Positions 7,856 to 42,209 of a stretch of 43,329 nt of DNA are shown piece by piece (positions within the stretch are counted from its first letter, which is position 1; every line of letters begins with the position of its first letter). The stretch lies in the UHGV virus genome UHGV-1380059. One strand, given 5' to 3'. The position numbers were made by a program, and so were the translations under genes. The DNA is from a virus. Under the pieces are notes generated by a model. The model was not told the origin of the DNA. It searched no databases and worked only from the letters and a program-made list of their open reading frames with translations.

Positions 7856-8053
7856 ATGAGTATGGACGAACCAATCATTGAACCAACAAAGCTAACATTA
7901 GCAGAGATTGCTCGCTTAGTTGCTAGACGTGACGAACTGACAACTGGTCTCCCAATGTATGACGCTCAATATATGCAACATGCAGAAGCATATGCAAGAG
8001 TAATGAATGACTTATATGATATCAATAGTAAACTAAAGGAGGTGGGAATCTAA
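7856..8053 (+). CDS. hypothetical protein (65 aa)
   Basis: ORF track; RBS AGGAGG. Confidence 0.5.
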   Translation: MSMDEPIIEPTKLTLAEIARLVARRDELTTGLPMYDAQYMQHAEAYARVMNDLYDINSKLKEVGI

Positions 8054-8550
8054 TGCCTGAAGAGTGGACTGACGTTAAAGACTATGAGGATAAATATCAA
8101 GTGAGTAGTCTTTGAAGAGTGAGAAACAAAGTTACAAATAAGGTGTTGAAACACGCATTGAACAAATCTGGATATCATAGAGTTAACCTATATAATGAAT
8201 CTGGAATGAAAAGTAAATTCGTTCACCGTCTAGTAGCAGAAGCGTTTATTCCTAATACTGATAATAAACCTGAAGTTAATCATATAGATGAAGATAAAAC
8301 TAATAATAGTGTTGATAATTTGAACTGGATGACTAGATTAGAAAATGCCAATTATGGAACAAATAATGAAAGAATGGCTAAAGCTAAAAGCATTCCCATC
8401 ATTGCCACTAATCTAAAAACTGGTGAATCTAAACAATTCAATAGTACTAAAGAATGCGCTAGACAATTAGGTTTAAATCATTCAAACATTACACATGTTC
8501 TAAAAGATAGATACAAACACACTGGTGGATACACGTTTAAATATATTTGA
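8053..8550 (+). pseudogene. NUMOD4/HNH_3-type homing endonuclease interrupted by an in-frame TGA (8113-8115); the conserved HNH His is replaced by Tyr
   Basis: 'MPEEWTDVKDYEDKYQVSSL*RVRNKV...' is in a single frame. The other copies have Gly (GGA) at the stop position. 'ENANYG' here versus 'ENxNHG' in the intact copies. Confidence 0.6.
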
Positions 8551-8565
8551 AAGGAGGTGCTTCAT

Positions 8566-8724
8566 TTGCCGTTTATGTATTGCAATCACTCAGGCTGTAA
8601 CGAAACCGTTAAGCTACCAGCACAATACTGTGCTAAACATCAACCATCAAAGCTACCTGAATCAGTAAGTGTAGAACAACCAACGGACAAGATTGTTGTT
8701 AAAGCAAAGAAGACCACTAAATAA
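8566..8724 (+). CDS. small Cys/His-motif protein (52 aa), a paralog of the N-terminus of the downstream HNH
   Basis: RBS AAGGAGGTG + TTG. 'MPFMYCNHSGCNETVKLPAQYCAKHQ' matches 'MPKRKCAVASCRAYVTLPERYCDAHQ' with identical spacing. Confidence 0.4.
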   Translation: MPFMYCNHSGCNETVKLPAQYCAKHQPSKLPESVSVEQPTDKIVVKAKKTTK

Positions 8725-8740
8725 CAGTGGTCTTTTCTTC
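8711..8740 (+). terminator. intrinsic terminator
   Basis: 'agaccact aaataac agtggtct' followed by 'tttcttct'. Confidence 0.55.
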
Positions 8741-8768
8741 TATATAATAGTAGAAAGGAGTAAGTACC

Positions 8769-9161
8769 ATGCCTAAACGTAAGTGTGCAGTGGCTTCATG
8801 TCGCGCATATGTCACGCTACCTGAGCGCTACTGTGACGCACATCAAGGGTATAACAATAGCCAGTACAATAAGCACGTAAGATACAACGAAGACAACAAG
8901 AAGTACAGTACCTTCTATCATTCAACCCAATGGAGGAACACACGTAAAGCCAAGCTAATGGAGCAACCACTATGTGAGGTATGCTTGGCACAAGGCAAGT
9001 ACACCAACGCTAACATGGTTCACCATAAGATAGAATTAAGAAGTCCAAATGGATGGAAACATAGACTTGATTTAAATAACTTAGAGTCAATCTGTTACGA
9101 GTGTCACAACAAGGAAGAACATAGCTACAGTTGGAAAAATAGAGGTAGAGAACAGCGTTAA
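8769..9161 (+). CDS. HNH endonuclease, classical family, terminase-associated in cos-type phages
   Basis: 'CEVC...HHKIEL...N...ICYECHNKEEH'; positioned upstream of TerS/TerL. Confidence 0.8.
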   Translation: MPKRKCAVASCRAYVTLPERYCDAHQGYNNSQYNKHVRYNEDNKKYSTFYHSTQWRNTRKAKLMEQPLCEVCLAQGKYTNANMVHHKIELRSPNGWKHRLDLNNLESICYECHNKEEHSYSWKNRGREQR

Positions 9162-9511
9162 ATCAACAACCGCGCAGACAAAATTATTTTTAGGGAGACC
9201 CAAAATGTTTTTACCCCCCCTACCTTTTTATAACGAATTAATCGCTGCCCCCTCTTCTTCGCATAAAAGTCCCAAAACCAACTTTGAAAAACGTCCTTTT
9301 CCCTCGTAAAACGTCATTAAAACCTGGTTTCTTGTGTCTAAAATCAAGGCTTACCACTATATGTAGTGTTATTTCCCTTTAACGATTTATCCCCCAATAA
9401 ACATGATTGAAGCTGGTTTCTTTACACAAGATTCTTTTTATATGATATAATAAAACTATATAAGGGATTTTTTGTTTAACTCAAAACTAAAAGTAAGGGA
9501 GGTAGAAACAC
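9162..9511 (+). other. Putative cos / packaging-initiation region
   Basis: 350 nt noncoding with C-tracts ('ttacccccctacc', 'gctgccccctcttc', 'tttatcccccaat'). Short direct repeats: 'CTGGTTTCTT' x2 and 'aaaacgtc' x2, plus an inverted 'cttgtgt/acacaag'. Lies between the HNH and TerS, as in HNH-cos phages. Confidence 0.3.
9454..9462 (+). promoter_or_regulatory. extended -10 promoter TGaTATAAT
   Basis: 'tatgatataat'; no recognisable -35. Confidence 0.4.
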
Positions 9512-9697
9512 ATGGGTGCTCCAAAACCAATCATCGTTAAAGATTTAGCTACGGGACAATCCAGAAAATTTCCGTCACAGTTCGCTGCTGATGATTTTTA
9601 CGGGAAGAATCGTGGCTATTTTAAAGACGTTCGCACAAAGCTAGGCGGTCGCAACCGTCATTATGAGATTATCGAAATGAAGGACGAACAAAAATAG
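9512..9697 (+). CDS. stand-alone homolog of the C-terminal DNA-binding region of the NUMOD4/HNH homing endonucleases (61 aa)
   Basis: Strong RBS AAGGGAGG. 'PIIVKDLATGQSRKFPSQ' aligns with 'PIIATNLKTGESKQFNST' of the full-length copies. Confidence 0.45.
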   Translation: MGAPKPIIVKDLATGQSRKFPSQFAADDFYGKNRGYFKDVRTKLGGRNRHYEIIEMKDEQK

Positions 9698-40482: not shown

Positions 40483-40947
40483 TCATTTATTTCTATCCTC
40501 CCATCTAAACCCTTCCAATTCCCATAATTCTTTACCAAGCTCTTTTGCTTTCTTCCAATTATCTTTATCTATTGCGTTGTTAATTGCAATGATTAAGGCC
40601 TGTCGTTTTGGCTCTACTTTCTTTCTAAAAGGACGTTCCACACGTTCTACCCCTTCTTTTGGATTAATAGCGTAGCCAATGTTGGTATAGTGACTATTTT
40701 GTACGTTGCCATCTTTAAAATATAAATATCCTAAGTTATGCTCATTTTTAACAAACATATCTGCCACTAACTGAGAGATATAGAACTTACGTGACTTCTT
40801 ATGTGATCCATCAAGAACCACGTACATCTTTCCATTCTTTGGATCAACTAGTTCATTTTCATATCGTTCTTTATCTAGATGAAACACATGACCCTCATCT
40901 GTTATGGCGTACATATCATACGGCTCGTTTAATGGTTCAAATCTCAT
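40483..40947 (-). CDS. truncated, His-less paralog of the NUMOD4/HNH endonucleases (154 aa)
   Basis: 'YVVLDGSHKKSRKFYISQLVADMFVKN' aligns with 'Y...NG.[15 protein letters not shown]'. 'LYFKDGNVQNSHYTN' sits where 'VNHIDENKTNN' is, so His becomes Phe. No C-terminal DNA-binding domain. RBS GGAGGA. Confidence 0.4.
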   Translation of the reverse strand: MRFEPLNEPYDMYAITDEGHVFHLDKERYENELVDPKNGKMYVVLDGSHKKSRKFYISQLVADMFVKNEHNLGYLYFKDGNVQNSHYTNIGYAINPKEGVERVERPFRKKVEPKRQALIIAINNAIDKDNWKKAKELGKELWELEGFRWEDRNK

Positions 40948-41359
40948 CTTGTTTTTCCTCCAATTTTATTAGTTGGTCTACATAAACCTTCACTTTTTTC
41001 AAGTCTTCAATGCCGTTCTTTTGTTTATATCTATGTGTATACTTGTAAATGTTCGCTTTGTAGAAACCACACAGCTCTTCGTATGTTAGTAAATCATCTT
41101 CTAATACGTCAAAGAGCTGTTTACCTGATTTAGTTTTGTAGCGTTTGGTATTTTGTAGTTCTTCAGATTCACTACTATCCAATACTTTCTCAAAGCGTGA
41201 AGCTGAATATGATTCAGTGTGATTTTTCAAGCATACAAATGTTTCATCCAAATCATAATCGTAGTTAACGTTGGTAATTTCATATACGTGCCCAATTTTT
41301 AAGCTATGCGTTCTACCTTCATCATTTATACATATAACTCTATCTCCAACTTTAAACAT
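40937..41359 (-). CDS. DUF3310-like protein
   Basis: C-terminal 'LTYEELCGFYKANIYKYTHRYKQKNGIEDLKKVKVYVDQLI' resembles DUF3310. Confidence 0.45.
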   Translation of the reverse strand: MFKVGDRVICINDEGRTHSLKIGHVYEITNVNYDYDLDETFVCLKNHTESYSASRFEKVLDSSESEELQNTKRYKTKSGKQLFDVLEDDLLTYEELCGFYKANIYKYTHRYKQKNGIEDLKKVKVYVDQLIKLEEKQDEI

Positions 41360-41388
41360 TTTATCAAATCCTCTCTTTTAACTATTTT

Positions 41389-41417
41389 AATATTATCATA
41401 CTCTTGTTTGAATGTCA
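41389..41417 (-). promoter_or_regulatory. Promoter TTGACA-N17-TAATAT for the DUF3310 gene
   Basis: Minus strand reads 'TTGACAttcaaacaagagtatgaTAATATtaaaatagttaaaagagagg' then the ATG at 41359. Confidence 0.55.
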
Positions 41418-41480
41418 ACACAAAACTTTTATTTTATGCTATAATTAATTATAGGGATATTCCTCCTCCCTCCTCTCGTT

Positions 41481-41507
41481 AAGACTAGTCAATTGACTAG
41501 TCTTTTT
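41481..41507 (+). terminator. plus-strand-oriented intrinsic terminator inside the minus-strand gene block
   Basis: 'agactagtc aatt gactagtct' + 'ttttt'. On the minus strand it is followed by 'taacgag', so it is not a minus-strand terminator. Overlaps the stop codon of the 41497..41697 gene. Confidence 0.5.
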
Positions 41508-41697
41508 GTTTATAGTTTTGAATATCTGATAAATATCCAAAAACCTCGCGCGCGGTATGAAACTCAACTCTATGAATATCTTGTGGCTCATTAACATGGA
41601 AAACCTCTACATAGTAATTTAACTCAAATCTTGATTGACTGAATACTGTCACACAATATCCATTTTTAAACTCTGTACTAAATAATCGCTTATCCAT
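41497..41697 (-). CDS. hypothetical protein (66 aa)
   Basis: ORF track. Confidence 0.45.
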   Translation of the reverse strand: MDKRLFSTEFKNGYCVTVFSQSRFELNYYVEVFHVNEPQDIHRVEFHTAREVFGYLSDIQNYKQKD

Positions 41698-41699
41698 TA

Positions 41700-42209
41700 T
41701 TATTCCTCCTTATATTTAAATGTGTAGCCTCCAACATGATTATGTTTACCTTTTAATACTTCGCAAATTGAACCGTTTGATACGTGTAGCAATGCTCCGG
41801 CTTCACTTATACTATTGTAAGTATTTCCATTTGAACAGATCACAGGCTTACTACGTGACGCTTTACTTCTTTTAATGCCTGAACCGTGTCTTATATTATC
41901 CAAATGTGATACCCATTCTAGATTACTTGATGTATTATTACATTTATTTTCATCAATATGATTTACATCAGATAAATTCAAGGGGTTATTTATAAAATAG
42001 GTCGCCACTAACCTATGAACCCTATAACACTTTCGTTCTCTTGAATTTATAATATGGATGTAATAATACCCACTTGTCTTATTCTTAAATGGTTTTAAAA
42101 TTCTATTTGTTTTAATATTTTTTATCCTACCCAAACTACTCACTTGATAATTTGGAAAATCTTTAATTGTCCGCCATTCTTCGCAATTCACGTTTTCTAA
42201 CTGACTCAT
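41700..42209 (-). CDS. HNH homing endonuclease (NUMOD4 + HNH_3)
   Basis: 'EEWRTIKDFPNYQVSSLGRIKN', 'HRLVATYFINNPLNLSDVNHIDENKCNN', 'DNIRHG'; strong RBS GAGGAGG; the start overlaps the PrimPol 3' end by 47 nt. Confidence 0.8.
   Translation of the reverse strand: MSQLENVNCEEWRTIKDFPNYQVSSLGRIKNIKTNRILKPFKNKTSGYYYIHIINSRERKCYRVHRLVATYFINNPLNLSDVNHIDENKCNNTSSNLEWVSHLDNIRHGSGIKRSKASRSKPVICSNGNTYNSISEAGALLHVSNGSICEVLKGKHNHVGGYTFKYKEE

Follow-up and report, generated by a model that had tools for sequence, protein, structure and literature searches.

I-HmuI, which together with I-HmuII is known from the Bacillus phages SPO1 and SP82, is a site-specific nicking enzyme whose coding sequence resides in a group I intron within a DNA polymerase gene. 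Genes related to it are the subject of the present analysis of UHGV virus genome UHGV-1380059, a stretch of 43,329 nucleotides that is referred to in its entirety as the window and that is a near-complete genome of an Enterococcus faecium siphophage of the group containing IME-EFm1/EFm5, Aramis, and the KEN phages. Our results make it probable that six homing endonuclease genes (HEGs), all of them free-standing, are present in this phage, of which five (labeled A to E) are of the I-HmuI type and one is of the GIY-YIG/NUMOD3 type, and that each of the six represents a separate lineage with a single insertion site to which it is tied. The resemblance to I-HmuI and I-HmuII is apparent in the product of D, which combines a NUMOD4 N-terminus, an HNH motif of the form DH..N..N, and a C-terminal helix-turn-helix (HTH), whereas the copies in the window differ in standing free between genes, with no intron detected by Rfam.

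The closest precedent for such a set is provided by the I-HmuI-like HNH endonucleases of Skunavirus, and the pattern is already well known in phages. A survey of lactococcal Skunavirus phages (Yu et al. 2025; PMC12724721) found 1 to 8 free-standing HNH genes per genome, distributed over 11 variable sites in modules for early functions, morphogenesis, and replication. The I-HmuI-like copies cluster by insertion site and are accompanied by truncated remnants and by one invariant GVE2-like packaging HNH per genome, and marker exclusion by the HNH endonucleases was shown experimentally (PMC12724721). In both cases the carriers are siphophages of a low-GC Gram-positive host, and the window shows all of the listed genomic features. 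It differs in its host and relatives (E. faecium, IME-EFm1/EFm5-like), in its sites, which include the junction between the tape measure protein (TMP) and Dit genes, the junction between the chaperone and TMP genes, and an overlap with the 3' end of the PrimPol gene, in the additional presence of a GIY-YIG gene, and in the location of its packaging HNH gene (upstream of TerS here, between TerL and portal in Skunavirus). Activity, demonstrated for the Skunavirus enzymes, is predicted for those of the window.

A further parallel is found in the T4-like phages, whose Seg and Mob systems are the classical model and for which two accounts (PMC2988022, PMC2790892) describe the free-standing Seg (GIY-YIG) and Mob (HNH) endonuclease genes as intergenic, co-oriented, and variable among related phages, spreading with co-conversion of flanking markers and in some cases cleaving at a distance from the insertion point. 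The HEGs of the window are likewise intergenic and variable in their presence, and its GIY-YIG protein has an I-TevI-like NUMOD3 DNA-binding region. However, the T4-like phages are myophages that infect Gram-negative bacteria, their endonucleases share no more than distant sequence relatedness with those of the window, and homing has been demonstrated experimentally in T4, whereas in the window we infer it. In the literature found on the Enterococcus phages considered here, HNH genes are colored or named without analysis.

Domain architecture of the mobile-type genes

Each of A to E matched the Pfam families PF07463 (NUMOD4), PF13392 (HNH_3), and PF22083 (I-HmuI_NUMOD-like) with E-values of 1e-9 to 1e-16, with the exception of E on HNH_3, where the score was 24.6 bits against a cut-off of 24.8. 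The catalytic motif VNHIDE(N/D)K.NN...NLEW....(E/D)N of a ββα-metal nuclease, in which His is the general base and the Asn residues bind metal or have a structural role, is present in B to E, and the sole difference in A is NLNW. The alignment of D with the I-HmuI structure 1U3E extends over the full length (E 1.9e-25) and brings the catalytic His and Asn into register, the motif of D being placed on DHKDGNKDNN..NLRW...IN of I-HmuI. The GIY-YIG protein matched PF01541 (E 1.3e-8) and PF07460 (NUMOD3; E 1e-10) as well as PF22083 weakly, and aligned with the DNA-binding domain of I-TevI (1I3J; E 5e-4). A sequence-only reading that preceded this analysis had already recognized both this gene and a classical packaging HNH gene, and the Pfam matches agree with it in each case (PF01844 for the latter); all of the open reading frames (ORFs) that it listed are also present where it placed them.

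No group I intron or other RNA family was matched in the window by Rfam at gathering thresholds (0 matches), and every HEG sits between intact flanking ORFs, abutting or overlapping its neighbors, with its own Shine-Dalgarno sequence, B among them. The HEGs are therefore free-standing rather than intron-encoded. A separate observation is that B and D possess an identical stretch running from the ribosome-binding site (RBS) through the spacer to the start codon, GGAGGTTTTATTTATG (window 9738-9756, and 37369-37387 on the minus strand), in which the RBS-spacer comprises 16 nt, while the two proteins are only ~59% identical. This suggests that the region for translation initiation moves as part of the mobile unit.

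The sequence-only reading had attributed nearly identical N-termini to four intact paralogs. This is true of B, C, and D, to which the start MKE(I/V)WKD(I/V)EGYEGLYQVS is confined among A to E, and does not extend to E, whose N-terminus is MSQLENVNCEEWRTIKDF and in which the last 47 nt of PrimPol, read in a different frame, supply the first 15 codons. The motif common to B, C, and D is itself a family-wide NUMOD4 signature, and I-HmuI from the Bacillus phage SPO1 has it in nearly the same form. As for the share of the genome devoted to such genes, previously put at more than 8%, that figure is reached if two further genes, F and G, and the packaging-type HNH gene are counted (9.8%) and is not reached by the six mobile-type genes (7.4%).

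Relationships of the copies to each other and to copies in other phages

When three sections of the window were searched by megablast against 50,697 phage records, the matches were almost exclusively to Enterococcus phages, the best matches being the E. faecium siphophages IME-EFm1, IME-EFm5, Aramis, dArtagnan, KEN18, KEN20, KEN21, KEN22, SSBHU, RG1, BUCT630, LG62, and EF36P1 to EF36P3, with patchy identity of 84-90%. Eleven complete related genomes (L001 to L011) were compared locally, and the 12 genomes mentioned below are these together with the window. The relatives are mosaic throughout, with 70-81% alignable at 84-87% identity. PHROGs and the annotations of the relatives confirmed TerS, the tail chaperones, TMP, Dit, PrimPol, and a metallo-hydrolase as neighbors, and the earlier view that the homing-type genes occupy insertion hot spots beside TerS and the chaperone, TMP, Dit, and PrimPol genes is borne out.

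Within the window, A to E are 40-62% identical at the amino acid level and 70-77% identical at the nucleotide level over ~300 nt, and exact nucleotide matches between copies reach 20 nt at most. The wider database holds homologs of A at 100%, 77%, and 73-74% identity. Homologs of B occur in assemblies at 99%, 95%, 92%, 91%, 84%, and 81%, and the 99% homolog, on contig L019, adjoins TerS and is thus at the same site. For C, no match above 57% was found in the curated phage collection; a large protein database holds homologs at 88%, 83%, 68%, and 65%, of which those at 88%, 68%, and 65% are located at the TMP/Dit junction of metagenome contigs (L012 to L018). D has a 73% identical counterpart at the same site in KEN18 and a 100% identical one in the protein database (P0023), and E has counterparts at the same site in Aramis (an unannotated ORF, 98% identical) and KEN22 (93%). 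The GIY-YIG protein is 95.5% identical to a homolog at the same site in KEN22, and the next best match among the 50,697 phage records is at ~37%.

In a neighbor-joining tree of 35 copies, the five from the window are interleaved with those of other phages and are not monophyletic. The copies at the PrimPol site, the TMP/Dit site, and site D each form site clades, and the TerS site holds at least five lineages. Since the external homologs are closer than the in-genome paralogs, these data point to independent, site-linked lineages rather than to expansion within this genome. The sequence-only reading had spoken of a swarm of closely related genes, and this description cannot be maintained given the 40-62% amino acid identity, exact stretches of at most 20 nt, and external homologs at 88-100%; in both the tree and the homolog comparison, the copies are no closer to each other than to database homologs, an outcome that the reading itself had named as refuting it. 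With a longest exact match of 20 nt, the associated proposal that the copies act as dispersed repeats driving rearrangement is weak as well. Recombination between the directly oriented B and C was considered and rejected in this connection, as the resulting deletion would also remove the essential structural genes between them. The ratio of nonsynonymous to synonymous substitution rates (dN/dS) is ~0.22 for the HEGs, compared with 0.05-0.11 for core genes (TerS 0.05, portal 0.08, PrimPol 0.11).

A minor point concerns the Aramis record (L001, LR990833), in which no coding sequence is annotated for the 169-residue HNH_3 gene at 31707-32213 on the minus strand, leaving an apparent 465-bp gap between ARAMI_45 and PrimPol.

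Presence and absence at each site

Site occupancy was scored in the 11 relatives by mapping the sequences that flank each gene. In this comparison, which the sequence-only reading had called for, all six mobile-type genes are discrete insertions, each with a site that is empty in at least one relative. Site A is empty in all 11, the gap in dArtagnan being 4 bp compared with 498 bp in the window. Site B is occupied in 8 of 11 and empty in IME-EFm5, IME-EFm1, and SSBHU, and its occupants in the relatives belong to at least five HNH lineages that are 42-58% identical to B. The GIY-YIG site is occupied in KEN22 alone and empty in the other 10 (26 bp versus 732 bp in the window). At site C, BUCT630 is the only occupied relative, with an HNH gene at the TMP/Dit junction that is 51% identical to C, and 9 of the other 10 are empty by gap mapping or annotation: two have a 26-bp gap, and in seven the annotation shows TMP and Dit side by side, no endonuclease gene intervening (EF36P1 to EF36P3 share one architecture in this count). 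At site D, copies with 67-73% identity are present in Aramis, dArtagnan, KEN21, and KEN18, and seven relatives are empty. Site E is occupied in Aramis, KEN22, KEN18, and, by a truncated copy, BUCT630, with four clean empties and three relatives that carry other small ORFs.

Conversely, seven sites that hold HNH genes in relatives are vacant in the window, namely one upstream of primase, one downstream of primase, one upstream of helicase, one on each side of DNA polymerase, one separating F from the metallo-hydrolase gene, and one in the early region. Across the group, at least 13 sites are in use, GIY-YIG sites included.

Decay of the copy at site A

The interruption of A by one in-frame TGA, reported in the sequence-only reading, is present at codon 21 (8113-8115), where GGA has become TGA at a conserved Gly codon in a gene that is otherwise full length. 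An intact allele (P0121, on a 43,813-bp contig) has Gly21 and is otherwise 100% identical. Contig L019 (Logan ERR10101741), which comes from a different sequencing run and is 99.0-99.8% identical to window 6150-13257, lacks window 7880-8475. This 596-bp deletion lies between two AATCATT repeats (L019 1700-1760) and removes most of A together with a 65-residue ORF at 7856-8053, so that no more than 75 bp of the 3' end persist, out of frame. Near-identical genomes thus carry A intact, with a nonsense codon, or deleted, and A is best read as a decaying copy; among the members of the proposed swarm, real decay is limited to A. The two contigs that share the TGA (L020 and L021) are 100% identical to the window and come from the same genome (JGI metagenome 3300045988, contig Ga0495776_019733, 43,448 bp), so they provide no independent support for the TGA, and a sequencing error at this base is possible.

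Signs of recent mobility and the PrimPol site

E and ~200 bp of the PrimPol 3' end are 99-100% identical to Aramis, compared with 87% genome-wide, and the 3' half of the GIY-YIG gene together with the TMP junction is 99-100% identical to KEN22, compared with 85% genome-wide. Tracts of this kind are what recent transfer with co-conversion would produce, although ordinary mosaic recombination could give rise to them too.

The PrimPol site shows two further features. KEN18 carries another HNH lineage here (L006 14794-15324) that is 45% identical to E and has the same PrimPol-encoded N-terminus, the two copies diverging immediately past the PrimPol stop codon. BUCT630 carries a truncated E-type copy (L011 41247-41669). 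Both phages have the PrimPol allele that is linked to the presence of a HEG, which encodes NQISLNPP (TCRYTW) at 10 of 10 HEG-bearing loci, whereas NQIGC(N/V)PP (GGYTGY) is encoded at 16 of 16 non-redundant HEG-less loci. The sample for this SL/GC comparison comprised the 12 genomes and 16 IMG/VR loci, including an E. faecalis phage group whose PrimPol is 75% identical. The variable codons lie ~40 nt upstream of the E start, and the change from GGYTGY to TCRYTW is a candidate for the recognition or immunity determinant of E, as predicted from this covariation. The PrimPol 3' end may be a fixed landing pad at which unrelated HEG lineages are exchanged while the PrimPol-encoded N-terminus is kept, with the GC/SL switch acting as the immunity determinant.

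A second polymorphism was observed at site B. The first ~22 codons of TerS (window 10263-10329, plus strand) occur among the relatives as two sharply different alleles, MRPRKLLNATSKHLTTEEREAKE and MARPRKLLNAQSGNLTTQQREERE, with the cores TSKH...EEREAKE and QSGN...QQREERE, respectively. The former has been seen only with a HEG beside TerS and the latter both with and without one, so that the correlation with HEG presence is imperfect. These alleles may represent a co-conversion or target-site signature for site B.

Table 1. Positions of the endonuclease genes and associated features in the window
Feature	Position	Strand	Description
HEG A	8053..8550	+	NUMOD4, HNH_3, I-HmuI_NUMOD-like (Pfam); early region, upstream of packaging HNH; TGA at codon 21
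Packaging-type HNH	8769..9161	+	PF01844; GVE2-type; core gene
G	9512..9697	+	Conserved small gene, 61 residues; phrog_10805
HEG B	9754..10257	+	NUMOD4, HNH_3, I-HmuI_NUMOD-like (Pfam); intact; between G and TerS
GIY-YIG gene	18973..19638	+	GIY-YIG and NUMOD3; between tail assembly chaperone genes and tape measure gene
HEG C	24256..24783	+	NUMOD4, HNH_3, I-HmuI_NUMOD-like (Pfam); intact; TMP/Dit intergenic; stop overlaps Dit start codon
HEG D	36859..37371	-	NUMOD4, HNH_3, I-HmuI_NUMOD-like (Pfam); intact; replication module
F	40483..40947	-	His-less distant HNH_3 homolog; single-copy core gene
HEG E	41700..42209	-	NUMOD4, HNH_3, I-HmuI_NUMOD-like (Pfam); intact; 5' end overlaps PrimPol 3' end
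PrimPol Ser218-Leu219 codons TCACTT	42247..42252	-	Covary with HEG at site E

Proposed mechanism and alternative explanations

During co-infection with a related HEG-less phage, the enzyme encoded by a HEG of the window would nick or cut the HEG-less allele near the insertion site, and recombinational repair from the HEG-bearing genome would copy the gene and its flanks into the recipient, resulting in co-conversion, or marker exclusion. Following fixation, the gene would be free to decay, as A appears to have done through intact, nonsense, and microhomology-mediated deletion states. This mechanism is proposed because it has been established for I-HmuI, for the T4 Seg and Mob enzymes, and for the Skunavirus HNH endonucleases; cleavage by the proteins of the window, the cut site, and homing are all predicted by analogy with these systems. 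Several points weigh against the view of six site-linked HEG lineages spreading in this manner. Cleavage and homing are predictions for these particular proteins, and the high-identity tracts could also have come from ordinary mosaic recombination. The SL/GC counts take no account of kinship and could reflect a single ancient linked haplotype rather than a target site, and a scan of the flanks of D found no HEG-linked polymorphism beyond the junction. Furthermore, the diversity of lineages at the TerS site and the grouping of the BUCT630 TMP/Dit occupant with TerS-site copies indicate that site specificity is not strict.

Other explanations for this set of genes fare less well. If a single HEG family had expanded by duplication or transposition in this genome, leaving paralogs along with F and G as decay fragments, the common architecture of A to E, the near-identical N-terminal motif of B, C, and D, and the 16-nt RBS-spacer shared by B and D would all be accounted for, as would the finding that, if only the curated phage collection is considered, in-genome paralogs (58-62% identity) and the best external matches (54-61%) are about equally close to A, B, and C. 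However, the wider database holds homologs of A, B, and C at 77-100% identity, those of B and C at the same site where the context was checked, and D and E have same-site orthologs at 73% and 98%, respectively. The lack of monophyly of the window copies, the occurrence of the N-terminal motif in SPO1 I-HmuI, and the status of F and G as core genes under purifying selection (see below) also speak against such an expansion, which we consider very improbable. It is somewhat easier to envision, although still unlikely, that the genes are not, or not only, selfish and are kept because they benefit the phage, either as weapons that exclude the markers of co-infecting competitors or as auxiliary nucleases, in packaging in the case of B and in replication and recombination in that of D and E. 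The genes do adjoin packaging and replication genes, their dN/dS of ~0.22 implies that selection maintains the ORFs, Skunavirus HNH endonucleases are reported to exclude markers (PMC12724721), and the HNH at 8769-9161 is a real core packaging-type HNH. Nonetheless, each site is empty in some viable relatives, and none of the HEGs is therefore essential, while A is broken in the window and deleted in a 99%-identical relative. Marker exclusion is moreover the same molecular mechanism as homing, which makes the distinction one of emphasis.

The explanation to which we attach the least weight, as it is hardly compatible with the data as a whole, is that the genes are passive cargo of illegitimate or homologous mosaic recombination and that the endonucleases either lack activity or play no part in their own spread. 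The mosaicism of these genomes throughout (70-81% alignable, 84-87% identity) and the absence of a flanking signature at D are what this would lead one to expect, but it does not explain why B to E, the four ORFs without an interruption, have conserved catalytic residues, why the same junctions are repeatedly occupied by different lineages, why the SL/GC alleles correlate with HEG presence across deeply diverged phages, or why the identity peaks are centered on the HEGs.

Independent HEG lineages tied to their sites, the explanation that we favor, also have implications for the use of these phages. The six occupied sites and the seven HNH sites in relatives amount to a HEG-site pan-genome of therapeutically relevant E. 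faecium phages, in which HEG turnover is part of the mosaicism. Since HEGs can bias the inheritance of markers in phage mixes, such as cocktails or Appelmans-type training (e.g., Aramis × dArtagnan; PMC11210271), knowledge of which sites are occupied helps to predict the segments that would sweep through a mixture. The analysis furnishes one concrete target-site prediction (PrimPol GGYTGY versus TCRYTW), makes three stages of HEG decay visible in near-identical genomes, and calls for corrections to annotation, as F is not predicted to be an active HNH and the Aramis record omits its E ortholog. The more interesting leads are the PrimPol polymorphism, the PrimPol-encoded N-terminus of two lineages, the decay series of A, and the possible exaptation of F.

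Core genes outside the mobile set

F, G, and the HNH at 8769-9161 are core genes of the phage group and lie outside the mobile set. F is 81-93% identical and in the same place in 10 relatives by tblastn, orthologs were recovered from 11 of 11, and exactly one copy is found in each of 125 Enterococcus phage records. Its dN/dS of 0.097 is like that of a core gene. The sequence-only reading had described F as a truncated, His-less paralog and one of the decay products of the swarm. The absence of the catalytic His is evident in all 12 genomes, where NH(I)D is replaced by YFKD, HRLVA by SQLVA, and the C-terminal HTH by other sequence; decay, on the other hand, is at odds with both the distribution and the dN/dS. 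The relationship to the HEGs is distant: F matches PHROG HNH endonuclease families (E 2e-11), a hidden Markov model built from A to E matches it at E ~1e-5 in every genome, and hhalign places the two in register (E 2.4e-4). Neither F nor G matched a Pfam family, a PDB sequence search with F matched nothing, and a single-sequence AlphaFold2 model of F was unusable, with a mean pLDDT of 45. F is presumably an old, fixed, functional gene, to judge from its conservation. It may have originated as an I-HmuI-family protein that lost the catalytic His and the NUMOD HTH and then became a conserved core gene of the replication module in all ~125 sequenced Efquatrovirus-like Enterococcus phages, where it could bind specific DNA sequences or act on the active HEGs in the role of a decoy or regulator. 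Taken jointly with the smaller point of the PrimPol landing pad and GC/SL switch, exaptation of F from a homing endonuclease is a tentative proposal that we regard as possible rather than probable. It was also observed that many records label F as an HNH (homing) endonuclease, despite the replacement of the His in all 12 genomes compared.

G had been taken for a stand-alone C-terminal fragment of the swarm and is instead a conserved gene, full length in 9 of 11 relatives (65-93% identity), HEG-less ones included, with a dN/dS of 0.11. In dArtagnan and EF36P2 the gene is split or carries a frameshift, and in BUCT630 it is a longer ORF; it directly precedes TerS in HEG-less phages and the HEG where one is present. 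The PHROG that it matches is annotated as of unknown function, and its similarity to the C-terminal (NUMOD-like) domain of the HNH proteins is weak, although it should not be dismissed (71% probability and E 3.7e-5 in hhalign, over 37 columns). G could be a small DNA-binding partner in packaging. The interpretation of F and G as decay products was rejected, as their distribution is not sporadic, their dN/dS is core-like, and they are under purifying selection.

The packaging-type HNH belongs to the GVE2/HK97 gp74 type, aligns with the GVE2 HNH structure 5H0M (E 2.9e-14), and is encoded ~1.1 kb upstream of TerS. It is 84-97% identical and in the same place in the 10 relatives searched, is annotated there in the 11th, and has a dN/dS of 0.097. 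From this similarity and conservation, it is probably a packaging cofactor, and the gene is a core gene and not mobile. Just upstream, a 55-residue ORF (8557-8724, plus strand) has an N-terminus, YCNHSGCNETVKLPAQYCAKHQ, that resembles the Cys-rich N-terminal segment of the packaging HNH, KCAVASCRAYVTLPERYCDAHQ (E 2e-5 in a pairwise BLASTP against this single protein), and this likeness could reflect either a partial duplication or a shared zinc-ribbon module.

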